A DNA stretch of 9,382 nt from a virus (taxonomy: Duplodnaviria > Heunggongvirae > Uroviricota > Caudoviricetes), in the IMG/VR virus record IMGVR_UViG_2740892235_000008. One strand, written 5' to 3'. The position numbers and the translations under genes were made by a program. Numbering within the stretch: position 1 is the stretch's first letter; the number at the start of each line of letters is the position of its first letter. The notes beneath the pieces are model-generated. The model saw nothing but the letters and a program-made list of their open reading frames with translations, did no database searches and was not told the DNA's origin. Shown here one piece after another: positions 1 to 9,382 of the stretch.

Positions 1-688
1 AGGTACGGCTGTATCGTTCGCGCTGCTCGACGATCCCCAGCTTCGCCATCTGGTGATATGCCTGATTAGCCGTAAGGCGGATACCATACTGTTTCAGCAG
101 TGCACTCAGCGACAGTGTCGGGCGACTTGAGCCATCAGGCGCGTCAGCAGGAGCATCAATGGCATAGCGCGGTGCCAGATTCGGTAAGCCAACAGCCTCC
201 TGGAGTTTCTGACAGGCACCAAGCACTGATGAGTTAGACAGATTTAACTCCCGGCGCATAAAGTCCAGCAGAATCACGCCAGCCTGCATCTTGTCAGCAG
301 CCTGCCCGGATAATTTTTCCGGTGCGCTGGTTACCATGTCGAAAGTGCGGATCACCTTCAGATGGAATGACGGGCTGATCCACATTGCATAGGCATACAC
401 CAGTTCCTTACAGACATATGTTCCGCCATTCCGCCCTTCTATTTTACTGACAGGTTTACTACCCAAATTTTGGGTAGTTTCATTGAATGAACCGACACCC
501 AGATTTTGGGTATCGATCAATTCCTGAACCAGCTCAGTAATCTGTTGGCTGGAAAGAAACTTTCCCGGCTCCTTGGTTCTGGCATTTGCACCAGATGCTA
601 CTGCTGCGCGATGCAGATCGTTCAGGCTGTAACGTCCATAAGCATCACGACGAACTTCAATACCATCAATGACCATCAGATTATTCAT
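1..688 (-). CDS. KilA-N/Bro-N-type antirepressor-like protein, 3' end runs off the window start
   Basis: Hand translation of the reverse complement from ATG (686-688) is open to position 1 (about 229 codons, MNNLMVIDGIEVRRDAYGRYSLNDLHRAA...). AAGAGGAG Shine-Dalgarno lies about 8 nt upstream (complement of 696-703). Not in the ORF track because there is no in-window stop. Family assignment is from N-terminal resemblance as remembered. Confidence 0.6.
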   Translation of the reverse strand, partial: MNNLMVIDGIEVRRDAYGRYSLNDLHRAAVASGANARTKEPGKFLSSQQITELVQELIDTQNLGVGSFNETTQNLGSKPVSKIEGRNGGTYVCKELVYAYAMWISPSFHLKVIRTFDMVTSAPEKLSGQAADKMQAGVILLDFMRRELNLSNSSVLGACQKLQEAVGLPNLAPRYAIDAPADAPDGSSRPTLSLSALLKQYGIRLTANQAYHQMAKLGIVEQRERYSRT

Positions 689-707
689 ACTTCGTTTCTC
701 CTCTTAA

Positions 708-890
708 TCAGGCGGCTGCACCCGCCGTTTTCTCGTACTTACTGATAGTGATCTCGACCTTCCCTTCCGGGATAACCGGTCCCCACTCCACCAGCATTCT
801 TTTCACCTGGCTGTCGTCTTCCCACACACCCGCGTGGGTCAGGGCGTCAAACAGCGCCTTGTTATAGTTGTCCAGATCGCGGATCCGGTT
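708..890 (-). CDS. rusA: RusA Holliday-junction resolvase, C-terminal part (5' side cut by N gap; N-terminal part is at 1514-1801)
   Basis: Translation NRIRDLDNYNKALFDALTHAGVWEDDSQVKRM... with stop at 708-710. The RDLDN / FDAL / DD motif is typical of RusA. Bases 821-890 repeat 1524-1594 with one SNP, so the two pieces are the same gene split by the scaffold join. Confidence 0.75.
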   Translation of the reverse strand, partial: NRIRDLDNYNKALFDALTHAGVWEDDSQVKRMLVEWGPVIPEGKVEITISKYEKTAGAAA

Positions 891-900: not shown

Positions 901-1137
901 TTTGCAGACATACGTCCCCTGGTTATTTCCGCCACGAATAACGTTAACTGGCTCTATATTGACCGAGTTGCAAATCTGCAACTCGCTTATTAAACGTTCA
1001 GTTTGCTCATTGCGGAGCCAGAATGCAGGCTTATGCTTATCCAGAGAACCGGCAGCCCTGTGCAGATCGTTCAGGCTGTAACGCCCATAAGCATCACGAC
1101 GAACTTCAATACCATCAATGACCATCAGATTATTCAT
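901..1137 (-). CDS. KilA-N-domain protein, second allele, N-terminal fragment bounded by gaps
   Basis: ATG at 1135-1137. Translation MNNLMVIDGIEVRRDAYGRYSLNDLHRAAGSLDKHKPAFWLRNEQ...GTYVCK: first 29 aa identical to the 1-688 gene, then divergent, then reconverging at GTYVCK. 1063-1140 nearly repeats 606-690. Confidence 0.5.
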
Positions 1138-1140
1138 ACT

Positions 1141-1150: not shown

Positions 1151-1297
1151 GCGTAACTGCTCAACTATTGCTGCACACGCCGCGCTCTGGAATTTGCGCC
1201 CCGCTGCGCTTATCAGGCTCTTACCAGCAAACGCCCCTTTGTTGGGGTGTCGCCAGTACGTGTTCACGCTGGGCGGAAAAGGCAGAATCAGCTTCAT
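1151..1297 (-). CDS. rusA: RusA N-terminal fragment, second allele
   Basis: ATG at 1295-1297, translation MKLILPFPPSVNTYWRHPNKGAFAGKSLISAAGRKFQSAACAAIVEQLR. Near-identical with SNPs to 1660-1801. Confidence 0.55.
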
Positions 1298-1503
1298 ACT
1301 TTCAGGCCCCTCTCATGTAACCAGTGGGCTGCACGCAGCCTGGCGTTTTCCTCACCGGCAAGCAGTGCGCGGATAATCCCGACCGCCTCGCTGTCGTCGT
1401 CCTTCACCGCGGTATGAAGCGTTATCCCCCGGGCCACGCCACGCTTTATCGTGATGACGCCTTTTTTCTCCAGTGCGCGAAGATGCTCCACCGCTGCATT
1501 CAC
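1294..1503 (-). CDS. LexA-DBD-like regulator, C-terminal fragment, second allele
   Basis: Translation VNAAVEHLRALEKKGVITIKRGVARGITLHTAVKDDDSEAVGIIRALLAGEENARLRAAHWLHERGLKV, stop 1294-1296 overlapping the RusA ATG (ATGA). SNP variant of 1798-2003. Confidence 0.5.
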   Translation of the reverse strand: MNAAVEHLRALEKKGVITIKRGVARGITLHTAVKDDDSEAVGIIRALLAGEENARLRAAHWLHERGLKV

Positions 1504-1513: not shown

Positions 1514-1801
1514 ACTGTCGTCTTCCCACACACCCGCGTGGGTCAGGGCGTCAAACAGTGCCTTGTTATAGTTGTCCAGATCGCGGATCCGGTTATCCGG
1601 AGGAAACAACACGATCTCCACTGAAGCAGGTGCCGACGTTGGTTTCGGCAGACGACGTAACTGCTCAACTATTGCTGTGCACGCCGCACTCTGGAATTTT
1701 CGCCCCGCCGCGCTTATCAGGCTCTTACCAGCAAATGCCCCTTTGTTGGGGTGTCGCCAGTAGGTGTTCACGCTGGGTGGAAAAGGCAGAATCAGCTTCA
1801 T
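1514..1801 (-). CDS. rusA: RusA Holliday-junction resolvase, N-terminal part (cut by gap)
   Basis: ATG 1799-1801; translation MKLILPFPPSVNTYWRH...VEIVLFPPDNRIRDLDNYNKALFDALTHAGVWEDDS. Start overlaps the upstream gene stop as ATGA, indicating translational coupling. Confidence 0.8.
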
Positions 1802-2124
1802 ACTTTCAGCCCCCTCTCATGTAACCAGTGGGCTGCACGCAGCCTGGCGTTTTCCTCACCAGCAAGCAGTGCGCGGATAATCCCGGCCACCTCGCTGTCG
1901 TCGTCCTTCACCGCGGTATGAAGCGTGATGCCCCGGGCCACGCCACGCTTTATCGTGATGACGCCTTTTTTCTCCAGTGCGCGAAGATGCTCCACCGCTG
2001 CATTCACTGAACGGTATCCCAGCATGGTAGCCACCTCCTGATTGGTTGGCGGGAAGCCACGTTCTTTCTGGTAAGAAATCAGCATATCCAGCACCTGCTG
2101 CTGGCATTGAGTTAACGTCGTCAT
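1798..2124 (-). CDS. LexA N-terminal DNA-binding-domain homolog (winged helix), no S24 peptidase domain, about 108 aa
   Basis: Translation from ATG 2122-2124: MTTLTQCQQQVLDMLISYQKERGFPPTNQEVATMLGYRSVNAAVEHLRALEKKGVITIKRGVARGITL..., which aligns closely to the remembered LexA DBD (…[65 protein letters not shown]). ATG overlaps the upstream stop (TAATG). The ORF-track start at 2157 is an unsupported upstream extension. Confidence 0.75.
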   Translation of the reverse strand: MTTLTQCQQQVLDMLISYQKERGFPPTNQEVATMLGYRSVNAAVEHLRALEKKGVITIKRGVARGITLHTAVKDDDSEVAGIIRALLAGEENARLRAAHWLHERGLKV

Positions 2125-2612
2125 TAAGCCCCCACGTAATTCCCTGACAGATACCACTCTTCACCCGATACAGCGCGCTTGCTGCTTTTCCGTAAACACC
2201 GCTCACGACGCGCAAGAAAATTGTTTCGCTCTTGCTGGGAGTGGCTTTCACGGAATGCCGCCATCCACACCGTTGCAGCACGACGGTATAAGCCCCTGGA
2301 CTCCAGTTCTTCCGCCTGGCGGGTCAGGCACAAAATCACCCGGGGATCGTTAGTGCCGACATAGAAATTGCGCACAGGTCTGGATTCACGAACTGGTTGC
2401 GGTTCCGGCTCCTGCGGTATCTCAGTCAGCCGCGGGAAATGTCTGCGTGTATCCCCTTCACAACGGTGAGCCACACGCCCACTCTGACGTAACTTGCTTG
2501 CTGACTGCAGAACGCGCTGTCGTGAGTAACCTGCAAAAGCATCCGCAATGTCTCCGGAAGTACACCCCGGATGGGCTTCAATGAATTTCTGAACGTCATT
2601 CAAAAGACTCAT
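2124..2612 (-). CDS. PerC/ANR-family-like regulator with an additional N-terminal domain, about 162 aa
   Basis: ATG 2610-2612 preceded by AGGGGG with about 5 nt spacing (GTG at 2616-2618 is the alternative). C-terminal LESRGLYRRAATVWMAAF...RRERCL matches the remembered PerC/Pch signature (GLWRRAA..W...RR..CL). Stop overlaps the next ATG. Confidence 0.5.
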   Translation of the reverse strand: MSLLNDVQKFIEAHPGCTSGDIADAFAGYSRQRVLQSASKLRQSGRVAHRCEGDTRRHFPRLTEIPQEPEPQPVRESRPVRNFYVGTNDPRVILCLTRQAEELESRGLYRRAATVWMAAFRESHSQQERNNFLARRERCLRKSSKRAVSGEEWYLSGNYVGA

Positions 2613-2614
2613 GA

Positions 2615-3794
2615 TCACCCCCTGAATCCTGCCGGGATCTGGCTGTAGTCCACATTGTCGTAACTGGCTTTGAAGTACGGGTCTTCGCGTTTTTCTGTGT
2701 ACGTGCTGACGGACGGCGATAAGCGCAGGGAAAGCTCATCCCATTTTTCCCGCAGCTTCGACGGGCTGAGCACGTTNNNNNNNNNNATTTGAAGTACGGG
2801 TCTTCGCGTTTTTCGGTGTACGTGCTGACGGACGGCGATAAGCGCAGGGAAAGCTCATCCCATTTTTCCCGCAGCTTCGACGGGCTGAGCACGTTACGGC
2901 ACCAGAACGGATCGCGGCTGACGCGGCTGTACATCTCGCAGATTTGTTTATGAGTACGACCATCCTGCACACACATCAGGCGAATTTCGTTTGCCCAGGC
3001 TGTCCAGTTCGGTTCTTTGGGACGAACCACCTCGCCGTCACATTCGGCAGCCTGCTCGTACAGGGCGATGATTTTTTTCCAGAACCACTGTGCGCAGGTC
3101 AAATCATCCTGCGTCCCCCACTGGCGTTTTTTAGGGCTGAATACAACCGCATCAGGATGGCGAGTTAAAAAATCCTGTTCAGCCGTCTGCGTGTCCGGTT
3201 GCGAAGAGTCCGGACGAGAAGGTTTTTTATCTGACGGATCATGTTTTGATTTTACTGACGGATCCCCGCCAGATTCTGACGGGTGAAAACCCGCTTTTTT
3301 GCCAGATTTCGACGCATCAAATTTTGACGGGTCAGATTTTGATGCGTCAGATTTTGACGGGTCAGAATCTGACAGTTGAGAAAATGCCGCTGCCTGAAGC
3401 TTCGCAACGTTAAGCTGATAAACATTCGACGCATTGCGGTTACCCTGGCGACGCGCCTTACGCGTTAACCAGCCTTCTGCTTCCAGCCGTGCGATAGCCG
3501 TTCTGACGGTACTCATCCCCGCGCCAATCTGGCGTGCAATGGTTTCAATCGATGGCCAGCACACACCTTCGTCATTACTGAAATCAGCCAGGCGGGCCAT
3601 AATTGCCACGCTGGATAATTTCATGCCTGANNNNNNNNNNAGCCAATCTGACGGGCAATGGTTTCAATTGATGGCCAGCACACACCTTCGTCATTACTGA
3701 AATCAGCCAGGCGGGCCATAATTGCCACGCTGGATAATTTCATGCCTGACGCTGCGCAACCATCCCATACATAGCCGGTTAATTTAGTGCTCAT
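2615..3794 (-). CDS. phage replication initiator, O-like (N-terminal wHTH, Ser/Asp/Lys-rich repeat linker, C-terminal domain); spans two scaffold joins with duplicated flanks
   Basis: ATG 3792-3794 with GAGG Shine-Dalgarno 7 nt upstream; translation MSTKLTGYVWDGCAASGMKLSSVAIMARLADFSNDEGVCWPSIETIARQIG... In-frame through segment 2787-3630. True stop TGA at 2615-2617 found by hand translation (…DPYFKASYDNVDYSQIPAGFRG). The ORF-track frame after the 2777-2786 gap is an artefact. Real gene length is shorter than the coordinate span because 2672-2776 / 2789-2896 and 3520-3630 / 3641-3751 are duplicated overlaps. Confidence 0.6.
2777..2786. other. assembly gap (10 N)
   Basis: Run of n characters; about 105 bp either side are near-identical direct repeats. 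Confidence 0.95.
3224..3377. repeat. iteron-like tandem array (15-bp period; consensus CAGATTTTGACGNGT; 5 contiguous copies at 3303-3377 plus degenerate copies at 3224-3284); candidate replication origin inside the initiator gene
   Basis: Direct reading: cagatttcgacgcat / caaattttgacgggt / cagattttgatgcgt / cagattttgacgggt / cagaatctgacagtt, plus cagattctgacgggt at 3270-3284 and two CTGACGGATC-containing units at 3224-3265. They encode the SDxSK pentapeptide repeats of the linker. Lambda ori iterons lie inside O in the same way (established knowledge). Confidence 0.5.
3631..3640. other. assembly gap (10 N)
   Basis: Run of n characters; 3520-3630 and 3641-3751 are near-identical with 3 SNPs. 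Confidence 0.95.
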
Positions 3795-3803
3795 GACCGA
3801 CCT

Positions 3804-4142
3804 CTATTTCCCTGAATTTACGACGAAACTGTTCGAGCGGGCTGAAGCACTCATGCTCATAGCCTTCGCGGAGGTAGATAACACGTTGTGTTTCCGGCTC
3901 CCAACGAATGACTCTGACGGGCACTCCGTAGTGATCTTTGAACCAGCGGTTAACTTGTCGCAAAGGACTGTCTCCTTCTGCCGGTTGAAATCACCCACAG
4001 CCCACTCTGCAAAGCTGTGGGTTACAATTTCCCTGTCACCTGGTACATTTACTGCATAGCAATACTCCACCTTCGCTTTTCCACCCGGTACAGGAAGCGC
4101 AATCAGTTGCGAGCGACGGTAGTGTGTTGTTAAACTGTTCAT
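3804..4142 (-). CDS. hypothetical protein (112 aa) between cII-like and replication genes
   Basis: ORF-track ORF; ATG 4140-4142 overlaps the upstream stop as ATGA; stop is 9 nt before the replication gene ATG. Same strand as the whole operon. No recognisable family. Confidence 0.4.
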
Positions 4143-4690
4143 GCGTTAGTTTCTCCACAGTCACGACACGCCACGGCGCCCGGAGCTGCACACTCGCGGG
4201 CGTCACTACTTTCTGAAACGCAAAAGATTTTGTAGACCAGTGCTGCATGCTCCTGCAGCTTCGAAATTGAGAGGTACAGCTCATCGTTAATTGCTGTCTT
4301 CTCATGCGGTTCCACTACACCGTCTTCAATTGCTGAACGAATCTGTTTTGAATAACTGCCGATCTGTTCAATGACCTCCAGCAGGCGTTGGTTGATATCG
4401 GCGTTGTCCACATCCTCGACATCAGGAAGAGACACAAAGACGCCATTTGCAGACTGCGCCACAGCGTCAGCAATGAAGTGAGTTCCACCAGCACGTTGCA
4501 AAATCATTGCCCATCCCAGCGGGAAAATCTGATCGCCATCGGCACGAAGGCGGTTAAATAATGCGTTCTCTGTTACATCCAGCCAGTCAGCAGCTTCAGC
4601 GTACCCCCCCGGCAACGCTGCGATAGTTTTTCTGACAGCTTTCACGTACCACTCAGGCTGTTTTTCTACTTTCCAGTGATGCTTACCCAC
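4139..4690 (-). CDS. cII-like early regulator (HTH-containing, 183 aa)
   Basis: GTG start 4688-4690 preceded by a perfect AGGAGG with 6 nt spacing. Sits immediately downstream of the cro-like gene. Remote cII-like HTH pattern in …[19 protein letters not shown]. Function inferred from position and weak pattern. Confidence 0.55.
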
Positions 4691-4943
4691 GGTTCACCTC
4701 CTGTTCCTGTGGTTTAAACCCATTCTGGTTTTGGCTAGATTGAAAACGTGCCGGATAAAGAATCTGCATTTCGCTGACTTCACCCTTAAAAAAATTGGCT
4801 AAACGTTCTGCAAGCTCGATAGATGGAATCTGCTCCAGCCTCTCAATACGACTCAACGTCGCTGGATTGACTTGAACACCCGCAGCAACATGCTGCAAAG
4901 TGAAACCATGCGCCTTACGCACATTTCGTAATGGTGATTGCAT
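4683..4943 (-). CDS. cro: Cro-like XRE-family HTH repressor (86 aa), immunity module 1
   Basis: ATG 4941-4943 with GGAGGG Shine-Dalgarno; translation MQSPLRNVRKAHGFTLQHVAAGVQVNPATLSRIERLEQIPSIELAERLANFF is a typical HTH_3 fold. Divergent from the cI-like gene across a 97-bp operator region. Confidence 0.7.
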   Translation of the reverse strand: MQSPLRNVRKAHGFTLQHVAAGVQVNPATLSRIERLEQIPSIELAERLANFFKGEVSEMQILYPARFQSSQNQNGFKPQEQEVNRG

Positions 4944-5040
4944 ATGCCCTCCAAATATTGCGCGTTATGCATGTTATTTCACGCAATTATTTTGCGCAAG
5001 TTGATTTGCTTATCACGCAATAAAGAAATGTAATAAACGC
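4944..5040. promoter_or_regulatory. divergent promoter/operator region (OR/PR/PRM-like) of immunity module 1
   Basis: Between divergent cro-like and cI-like starts. Contains dyad TTGCTTATCACGCAA (5006-5020), a weaker TTGCGCGTTATGCAT (4958-4972) and the palindrome CGCAATTATTTTGCG (4982-4996). Possible PR toward cro: -35 TTGCGC, -10 TAACAT read on the minus strand. Confidence 0.55.
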
Positions 5041-5733
5041 ATGAACATAGGAAACCGAGTCAGACAACTTCGCCAAGCGAAGAACATGAAAATCGCCGAT
5101 CTCGCTGAAGCGATAGGAGTAGATGCGGCGAACATCTCGCGCTTAGAAACGGGTAAGCAAAAACAATTTACCGAACAAACACTGAGTAATATTGCCAGGA
5201 GCTTAGGTGTTGATATTGCTGATCTCTTTACCTCTGCCCACAAAAGTAATACTGTATATAAAAACAGTAATAATGAGGATGTTGCGCAGGTGAAGGATGT
5301 GTTCCGTATTGAAATGCTGGATATCAGTGCCAGTGCGGGAAATGGCCTTATCCAGGGCGGTGATGTCATTGATGTGATTCATGCCATCGAATACAGAACT
5401 GATAATGCTGTATCAATGTTCGGCGGACGACCAGCCAATCACATCAAAGTTATCAACGTTCGTGGGGACAGTATGTGTCCAACCATTGAGCCCGGAGATC
5501 TCATCTTCGTTGATGTCAGCATCAATCAGTTTGATGGTGATGGTATATATGTCTTTGGTTTTGATGACAAAATATACGTTAAAAGACTTCAAATGATTCC
5601 TGACAAACTGCTGGTGATTTCTGATAACCAGATTTACCGTGAATGGGGAATTACTAGCGAAAACGAACACCGATTCATGGTCTTTGGAAAGGTCTTAATC
5701 AGTCAGTCGCAAACCCTTAAGAGACATAATTAA
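5041..5733 (+). CDS. cI: CI-like phage repressor (N-terminal XRE HTH, C-terminal S24/LexA-type autopeptidase), 230 aa
   Basis: Translation has HTH (VRQLRQAKNMKIADLAEAIGVDAANISRLETGK), a candidate Ala-Gly cleavage site (ASAGNG) and the S24 catalytic motifs GDSM … KRL. Stop TAA 5731-5733. Confidence 0.9.
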   Translation: MNIGNRVRQLRQAKNMKIADLAEAIGVDAANISRLETGKQKQFTEQTLSNIARSLGVDIADLFTSAHKSNTVYKNSNNEDVAQVKDVFRIEMLDISASAGNGLIQGGDVIDVIHAIEYRTDNAVSMFGGRPANHIKVINVRGDSMCPTIEPGDLIFVDVSINQFDGDGIYVFGFDDKIYVKRLQMIPDKLLVISDNQIYREWGITSENEHRFMVFGKVLISQSQTLKRHN

Positions 5734-5742
5734 CCTCAATAT

Positions 5743-5765
5743 CCCATCCATCGGCCACCGAAAGG
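5743..5765 (+). terminator. rho-independent terminator downstream of cI-1
   Basis: GGCCACC-GAAA-GGTGGC hairpin followed by TTTTT (ggccaccgaaaggtggcttttt). Confidence 0.7.
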
Positions 5766-5777
5766 TGGCTTTTTATT

Positions 5778-5828
5778 ACCTATAAATTTGCATATCTCGC
5801 AAATATCACTTGCATATCTCGCAATTTA
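5778..5828 (+). promoter_or_regulatory. candidate OL/pL of module 1: two 15-bp direct repeats TTGCATATCTCGCAA (5778-5792, 5800-5814) overlapping a sigma70-like promoter (-35 TTGCAT 5800-5805, 17-bp spacer, -10 TATCTT 5823-5828)
   Basis: The repeats share the TTGC-N7-GCAA dyad and 13 of 15 bases with the OR site 5006-5020, consistent with the same repressor binding at both. Spacing of the two copies is 22 bp. Confidence 0.45.
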
Positions 5829-5920
5829 ATTTTATCTTTTGTTCCAGACCAACTACAGGATTACAACAAAATCTGGTTGCAACACGGTGCATGTGTCGTA
5901 AGCAGTCAGTAAATGTCAAA

Positions 5921-5985
5921 AACGAACAGGCAGGACGCCCACGAAGTAGCCGCCGGTGGCGTATGAATGACCGGATGATTCGTTA
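5921..5985 (+). ncRNA. conserved 65-nt structured element, copy 1 (candidate cis-acting leader RNA, nut/put-like, or small RNA)
   Basis: Same 65-nt sequence as 8186-8250 except in a 20-nt core. Outer inverted repeat AACGAA…TTCGTT. Inner stem CCGGT(N12)ACCGG here versus CCTGG(N12)CCAGG in copy 2, i.e. two compensatory base-pair changes preserve the stem. Confidence 0.4.
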
Positions 5986-6009
5986 AATACTATGTGTAAG
6001 AGAGCGCAA

Positions 6010-6213
6010 ATGAACCGTTATTTCACATGCTCGTTTTGTGGCGCAAACGAGCTGCAGGCAAAAAAAATCATCGCCAAAGGCGGAAAAGATGAAGTTGCTA
6101 TCTGCTCTGAGTGCGTAGTCTTGTGTGTCGGGGCATTAATCAATAGCAGCACAACTATTCGGTTCACACCAAATGAGAATGCGCCTTTAGATGCGCGGAA
6201 ATCTGGAGGTTAA
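6010..6213 (+). CDS. small ClpX-type C4 zinc-finger (ClpX N-terminal ZBD-like) protein, about 67 aa
   Basis: Translation MNRYFTCSFCGANELQAKKIIAKGGKDEVAICSECVVLC… matches the remembered ClpX N-terminal zinc-binding signature ([33 protein letters not shown]). Purine-rich AAGAGAG 5 nt before ATG 6010; the ORF-track ATG at 5992 has no Shine-Dalgarno. Confidence 0.55.
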   Translation: MNRYFTCSFCGANELQAKKIIAKGGKDEVAICSECVVLCVGALINSSTTIRFTPNENAPLDARKSGG

Positions 6214-6221
6214 AGAACAAA

Positions 6222-6497
6222 ATGAAAGTCCAGATTTTAAACAATAGTGGTGAAGTCGTTTGGTCATACGACATAGCCGCTCCTGTAGATCAGAGCGGCG
6301 ATAGCTGGACCAATGGGAAACATCAGATTATGGCTGGAGTTGTATTCTCTTTACGCCGTGCTTTGGAACAGGCTGAAGTCTTTCCATCAGACCCTGAATG
6401 GAAATGGCCTTTTTCTATTTGTCCAAATTCGGAGAGTACATTTCAGAAAATTGGTCAGAAAGTCGCACTCGAAGAGCATCAGCCAACTGTTTCCTGA
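6222..6497 (+). CDS. hypothetical protein (91 aa)
   Basis: ORF-track ORF. GGAGG at 6205-6209 but with 12-nt spacing to the ATG. Its 3' 83 nt overlap the convergent ORF at 6415-6660, so the true extent of one of the two is uncertain. Confidence 0.4.
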   Translation: MKVQILNNSGEVVWSYDIAAPVDQSGDSWTNGKHQIMAGVVFSLRRALEQAEVFPSDPEWKWPFSICPNSESTFQKIGQKVALEEHQPTVS

Positions 6498-6660
6498 TTT
6501 TTTCAGGTAACTCGTCGGCATCGCAGAAACAACAACGCTCGATCATGTTGAAAGCCGATTCGTAGAACTGTTTCTGCTGAGTGTCGCTGAGACAGGAAAA
6601 GAGCGACGTTACGATGATTTTATTAATTGCATTATCAAGTTCTTTTTCATCAAAAGTCAT
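6415..6660 (-). CDS. hypothetical protein (81 aa), convergent to the preceding ORFs
   Basis: ATG 6658-6660 with AAGGA Shine-Dalgarno about 7 nt upstream (revcomp of 6661-6680 is atacataaaaggaaaatcaa). Protein-like composition with a CCFCD motif. Confidence 0.45.
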   Translation of the reverse strand: MTFDEKELDNAINKIIVTSLFSCLSDTQQKQFYESAFNMIERCCFCDADELPEKIRKQLADALRVRLSDQFSEMYSPNLDK

Positions 6661-6689
6661 TTGATTTTCCTTTTATGTATACGGGCTTA

Positions 6690-6803
6690 AAAGGATACCA
6701 CCGAGCCTGAAGTGGTGAAAAGACAGGCACATAACAGCTAAGTATTTTCAACCAGAGAGAATCCTTAGCGTTGTGGTGAATGCGGCTCAGCGCACGCGGG
6801 TTA
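6690..6803. repeat. conserved right-flank element, copy A (6725-6803 identical to 8930-9008; 6690-6724 similar with SNPs to 8896-8929)
   Basis: Direct comparison of the two stretches; copy A is truncated by the gap at 6804. Confidence 0.6.
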
Positions 6804-6813
6804 NNNNNNNNNN
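6804..6813. other. assembly gap (10 N)
   Basis: Run of n characters. Confidence 0.95.
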
Positions 6814-7128
6814 TTCCAGCAGGCGTTGGTTGATATCGGCGTTGTCCACATCCTCGACGTCAGGAAGAGACACAAAGACGCCATTTGCAGACTGCGCCAC
6901 TGCGTCAGCAATGAAGTGAGTTCCACCAGCACGTTGCAAAATCATTGCCCATCCCAGCGGGAAAATCTGATCGCCATCGGCACGAAGGCGGTTAAATAAT
7001 GCGTTCTCTGTTACATCCAGCCAGTCAGCTGCTTCAGCGTAACCACCCGGCAACTTTGCGATAGTTTTTCTGACAGCTTTCACGTACCACTCAGGCTGTT
7101 TTTCTACTTTCCAGTGATGCTTACCCAC
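6814..7128 (-). CDS. cII-like regulator, second copy, N-terminal part (3' end cut by gap)
   Basis: GTG 7126-7128 with GAGG Shine-Dalgarno 6 nt upstream; translation nearly identical to 4139-4690 (one A to K change seen). 6814-7128 repeats 4376-4690. Confidence 0.55.
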
Positions 7129-7165
7129 GGTTAGCCTCATCGTTCTGTGGTTTCTGTTAATCGAT

Positions 7166-7366
7166 TTATCCATTAGATTTTTCATAAAGCTCAGGTTTAA
7201 ATGGCAACCGTCCGCAAGTTCTATATGCAGCTTCTGCTGCACGTCCTTTTGGAATTAACTGGCCCGGACGGTTTCGCCACTGATAAACGGCTTCAGTTGT
7301 TATGCCGAAAAAAGCAGCAACTTTCTCAATACTGCCGAAGTAGCTTTCGATATCGTCAGTTGTCAT
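7166..7366 (-). CDS. cro: Cro-like small HTH protein (66 aa), immunity module 2
   Basis: ATG 7364-7366 preceded by TTTGGAGGGCGT, the same leader as cro-1. Translation …SIEKVAAFFGITTEAVYQWRNRPGQLIPKGRAAEAAY is a Cro/YdaS-type HTH pattern. Divergent from cI-2. Confidence 0.65.
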   Translation of the reverse strand: MTTDDIESYFGSIEKVAAFFGITTEAVYQWRNRPGQLIPKGRAAEAAYRTCGRLPFKPELYEKSNG

Positions 7367-7463
7367 ACGCCCTCCAAACTAAGTTTTGTTAGATGCTAAT
7401 TACAAATCTATCTTTGGTCAATAAAAACTAAGATTACTTAGCAATTAAAGAAATGGTGCTCCT
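7367..7463. promoter_or_regulatory. divergent promoter/operator region of immunity module 2
   Basis: Contains 14-bp dyads CTAAGTTTTGTTAG (7379-7392) and CTAAGATTACTTAG (7428-7441); consensus CTAAG-N4-sTTAG, unrelated to the module 1 operator motif. Confidence 0.5.
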
Positions 7464-8090
7464 ATGGAAACGGTTGGTCAGCGTATAAAAGCTCTGAGAA
7501 GAGTTACCAGAACGTCCCAGAAAGAATTGGGTAAATTTTGTGGAGTAAGCGACGTTGCTGTGGGGTACTGGGAGAAAGACATCAATACCCCTGGCGGGGA
7601 GGCACTTTCGAAATTAGCGAAGTTCTTCAATACGTCAATAGATTACATTCTTTATGGTGCTGAGTTTGAAGGCAAACTCGTCACAAACATGCGCAGAGTT
7701 CCTGTAATATCGTGGGTTCAGGCTGGGCAGTTTACTGAGTGCAGGGCAGCAGAAGTGTTTAGTGAAGTGGACAAGTGGGTAGATACATCATTAAAGGTTG
7801 GTGATAACTCATTTGCATTAGAGGTTAAAGGTGACTCCATGACTAACCCTAATGGCCTCCCAACAATACCAGAAGGCGCAACAGTGATTGTAGATCCAGA
7901 TGCAGAACCTCGTCATGGAAAAATAGTCATCGCTCGACTTGATGGAACAAACGAAGCTACAGTAAAAAAATTAGTCATCGATGGCCCTCAAAAGTTTTTA
8001 GTGCCATTAAATCCTCGGTATCCCAACATCCCTATCAATGGTAATTGCCTTATCATTGGTGTAGTCAAAGGAGTTCAATACGAACTCTAA
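7464..8090 (+). CDS. cI: CI-like phage repressor 2 (HTH plus S24 autopeptidase), 208 aa
   Basis: Translation has HTH (IKALRRVTRTSQKELGKFCGVSDVAVGYWEKD) and the S24 motifs GDSM … KKL. Sequence is unrelated to cI-1 apart from fold-level motifs. Confidence 0.9.
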   Translation: METVGQRIKALRRVTRTSQKELGKFCGVSDVAVGYWEKDINTPGGEALSKLAKFFNTSIDYILYGAEFEGKLVTNMRRVPVISWVQAGQFTECRAAEVFSEVDKWVDTSLKVGDNSFALEVKGDSMTNPNGLPTIPEGATVIVDPDAEPRHGKIVIARLDGTNEATVKKLVIDGPQKFLVPLNPRYPNIPINGNCLIIGVVKGVQYEL

Positions 8091-8112
8091 GATCTCTCTT
8101 CTCTAACTAAGG

Positions 8113-8145
8113 CACCGAACTAAGAAAAGTTTGGTGTTTTCTCTT
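8113..8145 (+). terminator. rho-independent terminator downstream of cI-2
   Basis: CACCGAAC-(8-nt loop)-GTTTGGTG, an 8-bp stem with one G-U pair, followed by TTTTCTCTT. Confidence 0.55.
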
Positions 8146-8172
8146 GCCATGATAACTAAGTTAAGTTAGATT
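8144..8172 (+). promoter_or_regulatory. candidate OL/pL of module 2: -35 TTGCCA (8144-8149), 17-bp spacer containing operator CTAAGTTAAGTTAG (8156-8169), -10 TAGATT (8167-8172)
   Basis: The operator matches the module 2 OR dyad consensus; promoter hexamers read directly. Confidence 0.4.
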
Positions 8173-8185
8173 TTATATCAAAGAT

Positions 8186-8250
8186 AACGAACAGGCAGGA
8201 CGCCCACGAAGTAGCCGCCTGGGGCATATGAAGTCCAGGATGATTCGTTA
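8186..8250 (+). ncRNA. conserved 65-nt structured element, copy 2
   Basis: See copy 1; starts only about 6-8 nt after the predicted pL2 transcription start. Confidence 0.4.
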
Positions 8251-8254
8251 GCAA

Positions 8255-8279
8255 CAAAAAAGCGCCCTACAGGACGCTT
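8255..8279 (-). terminator. rho-independent terminator for the convergent cargo gene (possibly bidirectional)
   Basis: On the minus-strand RNA: AGCGUCC-UGUA-GGGCGCU (7-bp stem, one G-U) followed by UUUUUU. On the plus strand the same hairpin has one C-A mismatch. Confidence 0.65.
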
Positions 8280-8317
8280 AGCTCTTTAACAATCAGGATA
8301 TCCACAACAGTAGTAAT

Positions 8318-8809
8318 CTACAGATTGCCGTTAAGTTTTCTGGACAACTCCTCAATGGATGGAGGCGATACGTAATCCGGATTTTTATTCATCAGAAACT
8401 TATTTTCACAGTGGAGGCACCTGCTTTTATGAAAAAGCTCATCTTCGCTAACCGGGAATGGTTGAAGTATCGATACTATCTTTTGTCCAAAACATTTTGG
8501 GCAAAGATGCATGGTTATGCTGCCACCGTTCACGATTACCTCCTTCGAGTATACAAAAGTACCCGACTCAAGTTGGTTAAGGATATAGCCTTCCGTCTGA
8601 GCCTCAAAGTTTTCGAATTCTGCAATTTTAGCTTTGAGAGAAGCATTTATTTCTTGATAAGAGCCCACCAGTTCAACGAGAGACACGCATTCGCGCTGAA
8701 TAGACGCAAGCTTTGAGTTCAGCTCACCAATAGCCGCATTTACTTCAGCTTGAGTTTTTGCCTCGTTCATTAGTTTTGCAATCTGGGCTGTTTCACGAAT
8801 AGCCGTCAT
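8318..8809 (-). CDS. hypothetical cargo protein, about 163 aa: N-terminal predicted coiled coil, C-terminal CxxC…CxxC zinc-ribbon-like motif
   Basis: In-frame ATG 8807-8809 (MTAIRETAQIAKLMNEAKTQAEV…) is the first start downstream of the shared flank; the ORF-track start at 9097 would read through the shared flank. The Shine-Dalgarno is weak and a later ATG at 8768-8770 (MNEAK) is possible. C-terminal …HLCPKCFGQKIV…CLHCENKF…; stop 8318-8320; own terminator at 8255-8279. Confidence 0.5.
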   Translation of the reverse strand: MTAIRETAQIAKLMNEAKTQAEVNAAIGELNSKLASIQRECVSLVELVGSYQEINASLKAKIAEFENFEAQTEGYILNQLESGTFVYSKEVIVNGGSITMHLCPKCFGQKIVSILQPFPVSEDELFHKSRCLHCENKFLMNKNPDYVSPPSIEELSRKLNGNL

Positions 8810-8847
8810 TGCTGCCGTTAATTCAGCGATCACATTGAATACTCTTA

Positions 8848-8901
8848 TTGTTGTTGGGGATATCCAGATTAACCGAATCCTTGTTGTTGGGGAATAACCA
8901 G
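8848..8901. repeat. two about 20-bp direct repeats TTGTTGTTGGGGA(T/A)A(T/A)CCAG (8848-8867, 8881-8901) upstream of the cargo gene start
   Basis: Direct reading. Lies in the putative promoter region of the minus-strand gene, 33-bp period. Confidence 0.5.
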
Positions 8902-9008
8902 GTCCACCTCGCCTGATGTGGCTAAAAGCAGGCACATAACAGCTAAGTATTTTCAACCAGAGAGAATCCTTAGCGTTGTGGTGAATGCGGCTCAGCGCAC
9001 GCGGGTTA
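8896..9008. repeat. conserved right-flank element, copy B
   Basis: 8930-9008 identical to 6725-6803; preceding about 34 bp similar with SNPs. Confidence 0.6.
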
Positions 9009-9120
9009 AGGTTGAGGCTGACAGTCGACCTTCTGTGGATACCCACCCGCCTGGTGTGCAACCTTCGCCAGGCACCGGGAGGCACCCGGCACCACAACTT
9101 TATGCTGTGTGTAGTCCTGG

Positions 9121-9166
9121 CGGTACCAGTTTGTACCCTTGCTTCCGGCTGGTACCGTCCTTTTTT
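9121..9166 (+). terminator. large hairpin plus T-tract (CGGTACCAG-N19-CTGGTACCG then TCCTTTTTT); candidate plus-strand terminator
   Basis: 9-bp perfect inverted repeat followed by a T6 run. An allelic copy at 9258-9304 keeps the stem and carries a CTCTTTTT tract. Confidence 0.5.
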
Positions 9167-9247
9167 GCAAAACAGAGAAGAGCATCACCGGACGACGGGC
9201 TCATAACCCAATCCATCCGGGCGGCTGCCACCGCAGGTGTTCTTCTC

Positions 9248-9257
9248 NNNNNNNNNN
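9248..9257. other. assembly gap (10 N)
   Basis: Run of n characters; 9119-9247 and 9258-9382 are near-identical. Confidence 0.95.
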
Positions 9258-9382
9258 TGTACCAGTTTGTACCCTTGCTTCCGGCTGGTACCGCTCTTTT
9301 TACAAAACAGAGAAGAGCATCACCGGACGACGGGCTCATAACCCAATCCATCCGGGCGGCTGCCACCGCAGGTGTTCTTCTC

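Follow-up and report, generated by a model that had tools for sequence, protein, structure and literature searches.

How do two different lambda-type immunity modules come to lie between nearly identical flanks on a single viral scaffold, and what holds the flanks constant while the modules differ? The question is raised by a 9,382-nucleotide (nt) stretch of the IMG/VR virus record IMGVR_UViG_2740892235_000008 (Caudoviricetes), hereafter the window, in which a repressor gene and a divergent cro gene occur twice, as cro-1/cI-1 (module 1) and as cro-2/cI-2 (module 2). Each pair is bordered by ymfL, a CII-like regulator gene, on the cro side and by the same 65-nt element 3' of the repressor gene. 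A first-pass annotation, made from the letters alone, had described two heteroimmune cassettes of unrelated sequence on common flanks. At the DNA level that description holds, as do its open reading frame (ORF) coordinates (Table 1). The modules very probably belong to two related prophages of one Escherichia coli chromosome, and the 65-nt element, which borders both of them, is a candidate structured leader RNA.

Origin of the two immunity modules

The window contains seven runs of exactly ten N (891-900, 1141-1150, 1504-1513, 2777-2786, 3631-3640, 6804-6813, and 9248-9257), none of which figured in the first-pass annotation, including the one that separates the two modules. Several of these gaps are bordered by near-duplicate sequences of approximately 108 to 125 nt that are 94 to 99% identical, such as 2669-2776 and 2788-2895 (99%), 3523-3630 and 3642-3749 (97%), and, across the last gap, 9123-9247 and 9259-9382 (95 to 99%). 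The window was cut at the gaps, and the resulting eight pieces were compared by BLAST to two loci of E. coli RM10466 (NZ_CP028381.1), the prophage A locus at icd (L001) and the prophage B locus at a tRNA-Arg gene (L002). Because the pieces map alternately to these two loci (Table 1), the window is not one stretch of DNA but a series of linearised assembly-graph pieces from two paralogous prophage regions. The side-by-side position of the modules is a scaffolding artefact, and neither module is a contaminant. It also follows from this interleaving that all direct repeats D1 to D8 and D12 of the window are assembly artefacts. As prophages A and B are 95 to 98% identical in their early regions, the assembler would have split these regions, giving bubble arms and shared nodes that were then laid end to end.

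Closed genomes place both modules in the same chromosome. The module 1 contig (3641-6803) and the module 2 contig (6814-9247) occur together, at 99.7 to 100% identity, in at least eight complete E. coli genomes (RM9245, JNE120393, RM10466, O113:H21 FWSEC0010, 'strain 10', 'strain 4', 00-3076, and JNE131328), and they lie 0.73 to 0.82 Mb apart in each of these eight. RM10466 is annotated with both prophages intact. In it, prophage A, which carries module 1, adjoins icd (the e14 site) and encodes intE/xisE, an HK97-type head, a tail sheath, and a P27-type terminase. Prophage B, which carries module 2, adjoins tRNA-Arg (the DLP12 site) and encodes intD, lambda-type head and tail genes, nohD, bor, and quuD. 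The two prophages share an early block at L001 15437-21075 (95 to 98% identity), comprising Q, DUF968, KilA-N, RusA, a LexA-like gene, PerC, a replication gene, and DUF4222, up to ymfL, and a second block at L001 23058-25347 (97%) with yfdP/Q/R. The 65-nt element is an isolated island common to both (89%). All else differs between prophages A and B, including the late genes, the integrase (intE or intD), and the attachment site (icd or tRNA-Arg). The earlier suggestion that two prophages co-reside in one genome is thus borne out by these chromosomes, but its further claim that they are otherwise near-identical is not. Taken together, the contigs very probably come in turn from two lambdoid prophages that are mosaic relatives of each other and share one E. 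coli chromosome.

The modules themselves differ to unequal degrees. Both cI-1 and cI-2 encode a helix-turn-helix (HTH) domain (Pfam HTH_3, HTH_26, and HTH_31) and a Peptidase_S24 domain with the Ser/Lys dyad motifs GDSM...VK(R/K)L. The Cro-1 and Cro-2 proteins do not align, and CI-1 and CI-2 align around the S24 active site only (E = 0.015). The term 'unrelated' therefore fits the modules at the DNA level and for Cro, but not for the repressors, which, because of the alignment at the active site, appear to be distant homologues of one domain architecture. The two operators proposed earlier, TTGC-N7-GCAA for module 1 and CTAAG-N4-STTAG for module 2, were recovered at three sites each, at the right (OR) and left (OL) operator regions; none of them falls outside the interval between cro and cI or the stretch immediately 3' of cI. 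Exact TTGC-N7-GCAA occurs at 5006, 5788, and 5810 in the window, against 0.37 copies expected, and CTAAG-N4-STTAG at 7379, 7428, and 8156, against 0.01 expected. Ahead of cro-2, a pR-like promoter on the minus strand, TTGACC(7421-7416)-17-TAGCAT(7398-7393), is overlapped by operators.

Judged from this anatomy, each module would form a complete lambda-type bistable switch. CI, with its HTH and self-cleaving S24 domain, and Cro would be divergently transcribed from OR, and the same palindromic operator also overlaps the putative leftward promoter pL, 3' of cI. With different DNA-binding domains and different operators, each repressor should leave the other phage unsilenced, and both phages could coexist in one cell as predicted heteroimmune prophages.

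Two other explanations of the arrangement were weighed against the derivation from two prophages of one chromosome. The first-pass annotation had also considered a merger of two strains in the scaffold; in such a merger, or in a mixed culture, each strain would carry one prophage, with one of the modules, at the same locus. The window, which holds no attachment site, is by itself compatible with such a merger, as it cannot alone place both modules in one chromosome, and the allelic differences of 1 to 5% between contigs are what a strain mixture would also give. However, a merger is not needed: alternation between two paralogous prophages accounts for every contig, and the eight closed chromosomes, each from a single isolate, carry both contigs at two different attachment sites, which makes this explanation improbable. 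The modules might instead be truly adjacent in the source, in a tandem or nested prophage or through a local duplication with a cassette swap. Their colinear order superficially resembles a tandem repeat, but every junction consists of a ten-N linker between contig ends that overlap as near-duplicates, the truncation of ymfL-2 coincides exactly with such a linker, and the distance between the contigs in the closed genomes speaks strongly against adjacency, so that we regard it as having hardly any likelihood. N-linked draft scaffolds can set paralogous prophage contigs side by side and so mimic local duplication, which calls for caution in reading them.

Several points weigh against the interpretation as two co-resident, heteroimmune prophages. 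The few mismatches to RM10466 indicate that the source is a different isolate, and co-residence in the actual source strain is extrapolated from its closed relatives. Just two or three operator copies per region fit the respective consensus, and the module 1 motif is only moderately above chance, as three copies were reached in 2 of 200 shuffles. Repressor-operator binding, heteroimmunity, and inducibility are all predictions. Should the interpretation be correct, the locus would offer a clean and well-documented example of two heteroimmune prophages coexisting in strains resembling Shiga toxin-producing E. coli (STEC), and of the exchange of lambdoid immunity cassettes.

Table 1. Pieces of the window with their best-matching RM10466 locus, and features of the two immunity modules. 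Operators, promoters, and leader RNAs are predictions.
Feature	Position	Strand	Remarks
Piece 1	1-890		Best locus L001, 99.9%
Piece 2	901-1140		Best locus L002, 100%
Piece 3	1151-1503		Best locus L001, 100%
Piece 4	1514-2776		Best locus L002, 99.9%
Piece 5	2787-3630		Best locus L002, 99.8%
Piece 6	3641-6803		Best locus L001, 99.9%
Piece 7	6814-9247		Best locus L002, 100%
Piece 8	9258-9382		Best locus L001, 100%
ymfL-1, CII-like regulator gene	4139-4690	-	Prophage A, common left flank; Pfam Phage_CP76 (PF06892), E = 1.5e-13; PHROG 101, E = 2.5e-70; RefSeq ymfL
cro-1	4683-4943	-	86 aa; Pfam HTH_3, E = 5e-10
OR-1 control region	4944-5040		Predicted operators 4958-4972 (1 mismatch) and 5006-5020 (TTGC-N7-GCAA); cro leader TTTGGAGGGC 4946-4955(-)
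cI-1, repressor gene	5041-5733	+	230 aa; N-terminal HTH, SASAG Ala-Gly site, S24 domain with GDSM...K; PF00717, E = 6e-19
Hairpin and T run after cI-1	5753-5780	+	Intrinsic-terminator-like
OL-1 and putative pL-1	5788-5838	+	Two identical predicted operators TTGCATATCTCGCAA (5788-5802, 5810-5824) over promoter-like TTGCAT-17-TATCTT (5810-5838), the presumed pL-1
Candidate structured leader RNA, copy 1	5915-5987	+	Core repeat 5921-5985 (repeat D10); covariance model 92.8 bits; covariation
Accessory genes specific to module 1	5992-6660		ORFs 5992-6213(+), 6222-6497(+), and 6415-6660(-); PHROGs of unknown function
Start of common right flank, contig A	6698-6803	+	Contig ends here
Ten-N scaffold linker	6804-6813		Between prophage A contig and prophage B contig, exactly between the two modules
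ymfL-2, 5' 315 nt only	6814-7128	-	Prophage B; cut by contig end, full length in closed genomes
cro-2	7166-7366	-	66 aa; Pfam P22_Cro, E = 4e-11
OR-2 control region	7367-7463		Predicted operators 7379-7392 and 7428-7441; TTTGGAGGGC 7369-7378(-)
cI-2, repressor gene	7464-8090	+	208 aa; HTH, QAG (QAGQ) Ala-Gly site, S24 domain; PF00717, E = 2e-27
Putative pL-2	8144-8172	+	TTGCCA-17-TAGATT; overlapped by predicted operator 8156-8169; degenerate site 8120-8133
Candidate structured leader RNA, copy 2	8180-8252	+	Core repeat 8186-8250; P1 starts 10 nt after the pL-2 -10 hexamer
Hairpin, then boxA	8260-8292	+	Hairpin 8260-8279; exact rrn-type boxA GCTCTTTAACAA 8281-8292; 29 nt after copy 2
Accessory gene specific to module 2	8318-8833	-	171 aa; PHROG 1244, unknown function
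Common right flank, contig B	8904-9247	+	

Joints and exchange of the cassettes

The module 1 cassette spans 4716-5920, and over these 1205 nt it shares 99.3% identity with the region annotated as cI/cro in Shigella phage SfII; its identity to mEp460 (90.6%, JQ182728) and to several Stx2a phages is approximately 90%. The module 2 cassette, 7154-8185, matches phages vB_EcoM-689R6 and vB_EcoS-569R4 at 99.3 to 99.4% over 1032 nt, with annotated cI and cro genes, and mEp460_4F5 at 95.3% (LR595868). No notable difference separates the cassettes from SfII (module 1) and from 689R6 and 569R4 (module 2), except that here they reside at icd and tRNA-Arg of STEC-like strains.

On the pR side, both cassettes adjoin ymfL, which directly follows cro and belongs to PHROG 101, labelled 'CII-like transcriptional activator'; CII-like activity is predicted from this match. 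The earlier statement that nearly the same gene precedes both modules is correct in that the two sequences are 98% identical (4377-4676 versus 6815-7114), but what had been taken for the second gene is just the 5' part of ymfL. Homology between prophages A and B has its boundary at window positions 4715 and 7153. When SfV and K-12 e14, which represent a third immunity type, are added to the alignment, the common sequence starts approximately 27 nt upstream of the ymfL GTG and covers the ymfL ribosome-binding site. The last 11 codons of cro-1 (33 nt, 4683-4715) lie within this conserved leader, its stop codon overlapping the ymfL GTG, and cro-2 ends 13 nt short of it. The joint had previously been placed at the cro ribosome-binding site instead. 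The same cro leader, TTTGGAGGGC, does occur twice in the window, against 0.02 copies expected, but this 10-mer was rejected as a recombination joint: it lies inside the variable cassette, with the unrelated cro genes between it and ymfL, and the cro leader of SfV and e14 lacks it.

On the pL side, the 65-nt element is the first common sequence after each cassette. The right flank (6698-6803 versus 8904-9008) is 94 to 98% identical, but it is set apart from the element by accessory DNA, unrelated between the modules, of 712 nt in module 1 and 653 nt in module 2; element and flank, reported earlier as following both modules, are thus both common without being contiguous. Among the IMG/VR loci, three E. 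coli-type upstream flanks, two hairpin variants, and three downstream flanks of the element occur in most combinations. Because the element is found in most of the nine upstream/downstream flank combinations, crossovers take place at or in it, in agreement with the recombination joint suggested earlier downstream of pL.

Bounded in this way by conserved sequence, the ymfL ribosome-binding site and gene on one side and the 65-nt element on the other, the cassette would be exchangeable: homologous recombination in the conserved linkers would swap cI, cro, and the operators as one co-adapted unit. The exchange of cI/cro cassettes in lambdoid phages is textbook knowledge, known from imm434, imm21, and immP22 and embodied in the modular theory of lambdoid phage evolution. 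The swap described here is ordinary phage module exchange of this known kind, and both cassettes are already represented in isolated and sequenced phages. Co-transfer of cI and Cro among mEp and lambdoid phages has also been shown computationally (PMC9836094). Like the lambda immunity region and its imm434, imm21, and immP22 counterparts, both modules have divergent cI and cro genes around OR, operators at pL, an S24 repressor, and exchange as a whole unit. Unlike in lambda, the backbone is e14/SfV-like, with the CII-like gene ymfL and without N or rex, and the right-hand linker is a putative structured leader RNA instead of N/nutL.

An independent example of the swap, with its joint at the element, is offered by mEp460 (JQ182728), which is module-1-like, and mEp460_4F5 (LR595868; our locus L132), in which the immunity region is module-2-like (95.3%) and borders a 65-nt element of the module 1 type (98.4%).

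The 65-nt element downstream of pL

BLAST found the element in 53 phage records, including SfII, SfIV, SfV, ST64B, and mEp460, phages of Pectobacterium (ZF40), Yersinia, Pantoea, Klebsiella, Citrobacter, and Aeromonas, and T5-like Providencia phages. About a third of complete E. coli genomes (1846 of 5426) carry it, and in the K-12 prophage e14 it lies, unannotated, between ymfK and ymfJ. In a 16-mer scan of GTDB, 12 of 80 loci passed a covariance model of the element at ≥72 bits, all of them from Enterobacterales, and most of the 16-mer matches were due to chance, in GC-rich genomes. Rfam returned no match to the element at E ≤ 1 on the whole window and no relevant one at E ≤ 10 on 101 nt alone. 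In the papers searched, strings from the element yielded unrelated primers only, and ymfJ, ymfK, and e14 nothing on the element.

An alignment of 51 distinct copies (A2) was used to assess whether the copies share a structure. Most of them had been gathered by an exact 17-mer, so that the invariance of the core is partly by construction, although the core is also invariant in six copies found by BLAST. Three helices, a closing stem (P1), P2, and P3, are supported in A2, with 94% of cells paired versus 22 to 42% when the partners are slid. Compensatory double changes affect 10 of the 14 pairs (146 cells), and the covariation score was reached by none of 500 shuffles. RNAalifold independently recovered the same helices. 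Folding of single sequences, on either strand, gave z-scores near zero, and the structure emerged from the comparative data only. The balance of G:U (approximately 9) and A:C (approximately 11) pairs does not discriminate between strands; the presumed strand is that indicated by the orientation of promoter and boxA (see below). GGA is kept in every variant of the P2 loop (AGGAC, AGGAU, AAGGAAA, and AUGGAG), a second GGAUGA is nearly invariant, and CACGAAGUAGCCGC and GGCRUAUGAA are further invariant stretches.

The element always lies 3' of a repressor gene, on the same strand. Clustering of the adjacent upstream ORFs at 70% identity gives at least 32 groups, of which most have repressor-like HTH N-termini. 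In 31 of 82 distinct upstream contexts, including pL-2, the -10 hexamer of the best sigma-70-like promoter match ends 9 to 12 nt before P1. In those contexts, the pL transcript would open directly with the element. The promoter that the operators overlap in module 1 ends 79 nt before it.

Downstream of copy 2, a hairpin is followed by an exact boxA, GCTCTTTAACAA, which has the sequence of the rrn boxA (PMC2724277). Read on the minus strand, this hairpin would be the terminator of ORF 8318-8833. Of 91 distinct contexts, 21, T5-like Providencia phages included, have a boxA-like site with ≤2 mismatches within 400 nt downstream of the element and on its strand, compared to 2 with such a site on the opposite strand and none in the 400 nt upstream. 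The 21 contexts are often related sequences, and we estimate that six or seven of them are independent, counting the T5-like phages. No boxA was found in module 1 or on the pR side. Reverse-oriented accessory genes and terminators are common just downstream of the element: in the following 1.5 kb, terminator-like hairpins number 229 on the opposite strand and 48 on the same strand, counted over related loci. No N gene is annotated in the carrier prophages, and SfII, SfIV, and SfV have been reported to lack N and cIII (PMC3851460).

These features bring to mind the antitermination RNAs of other lambdoid phages. Like putL and putR of HK022, the element is a predicted structured RNA of approximately 65 to 75 nt, placed a few nucleotides after the start of pL in a lambdoid phage without N (PMC9378689); this position applies to the 31 promoter-proximal contexts of 82, module 2 included. 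Unlike put, which consists of two side-by-side stems, it would form a three-helix junction with a closing stem, and the covariance model matches each prophage once only, on the pL side, whereas put occurs in two copies, at pL and pR. By eye, ACGAAC(A)GGC and CAGGAUGA are common to the element and putL/putR, and nothing else is. Homology to HK022 put was rejected, as the covariance model built from A2 had no match at E ≤ 10 in HK022 22000-34000. The rrn leader (boxB hairpin, boxA, boxC) and lambda nut (boxA, boxB) offer a second comparison. Here, GCUCUUUAACAA, the rrn boxA (PMC2724277), recurs in module 2, where it is a predicted site on the transcribed strand of the leader, and in approximately a quarter of related loci, and it is often directly preceded by a hairpin, as in the rrn leader. 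The 65-nt element upstream of boxA, the lack of N and of a recognisable lambda boxB, and the lack of boxA in module 1 set it apart.

Two kinds of function were considered. The element may be a cis-acting pL leader RNA that alters elongation, as an N-independent processive antiterminator or anti-Rho element, alone or with an rrn-type boxA, and analogous in function to HK022 putL or lambda nutL; we put this forward tentatively, as our best guess but less likely than not. In favour of such a role are the three covarying helices, the fixed position and strand behind the repressor gene, the nearby -10 hexamer, comparable to that of putL, which starts at +3 of the pL transcript (PMC9378689), the absence of an annotated N, and the same-strand excess of boxA over both controls. 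Moreover, because reverse-oriented genes follow the element, the pL RNA would be untranslated and hence a substrate for Rho, and boxA/Nus complexes are known to act on untranslated, Rho-sensitive rRNA and CRISPR transcripts (PMC7665894; PMC5725501). On the other hand, a role in elongation is deduced from sequence and context, the covariation does not fix the strand, approximately three quarters of the contexts, module 1 among them, have no boxA, and the single copy per prophage, the empty pR side, the three-way junction, and the failure of the covariance model in the put regions all depart from HK022. The alternative is a different role altogether: the element may protect the 5' end from RNase E, bind CsrA as a leader, be a processed small RNA, or serve as a recombination linker at the DNA level only. 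CsrA binding draws on the GGA in all P2 loop variants, on CAGGAUGA 3' of P3, and on the near-invariant GGAUGA, and a linker role on the element's clear use as a crossover point. However, CsrA binding leaves the invariance of CACGAAGUAGCCGC and GGCRUAUGAA unexplained, a pure DNA linker would not give compensatory base changes in two helices, and the association with boxA points to transcription elongation; we rate a role of this kind as nearly as likely as one in elongation.

If elongation is indeed the target, the element, free of any dedicated protein, would render the host RNA polymerase termination-resistant and, in a subset of loci, cooperate with an rrn-type boxA. Being constant while the repressors diversify, it would also act as a recombination linker for immunity cassettes. 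With P1, a short GGA-loop P2, a covarying P3, and invariant junction strands, the element could then define a previously undescribed family of structured leader RNAs with which the pL transcript starts. Considered jointly with protein-free antitermination, cooperation with boxA, and the linker role, this proposal is a doubtful one that we do not expect to hold in all its parts. If true, it would represent a second, independent solution of the HK022 put kind, in N-less temperate phages of Enterobacterales and also in T5-like Providencia phages. Control of elongation by the element would explain the expression of the early-left operon in the large e14/SfV/ST64B-type group of N-less phages and would provide a compact, protein-free antitermination part.

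Neighbouring genes and minor matches

PADLOC gave no defence match among the accessory genes of modules 1 and 2. The first gene after the pL-1 leader, ORF 5992-6213(+), holds the position of N in lambda; its 73-aa product comprises little more than a C4 zinc finger of the ClpX type (PF06689, E = 1.4e-10) and could be a mimic of the ClpX N-domain. Two accessory genes, 8318-8833(-) and 6415-6660(-) (PHROG 1244 and 3311, respectively), lie in reverse orientation between the pL leader and the common early-left genes.

In the pR operon, both prophages encode a short 'LexA family' protein, at 1798-2157(-) and 1294-1503(-), that consists of a LexA DNA-binding domain without S24; both genes adjoin RusA. 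The replication-initiator gene 2596-3624(-) holds four iterons with a 15-nt period (CAGATTTTGACGGGT-like) at 3303-3377, which constitute a predicted internal origin in the style of lambda O. Rfam matched the window at two places only. The match to mir-5880 is spurious and was produced by these iterons. The other, at the start of the common right flank (8945-9168, plus strand), is STnc100-like but sub-threshold (40.3 bits, where the gathering score is 47; E = 4e-6), and RefSeq annotates a 'frameshifted hypothetical protein' that overlaps it.

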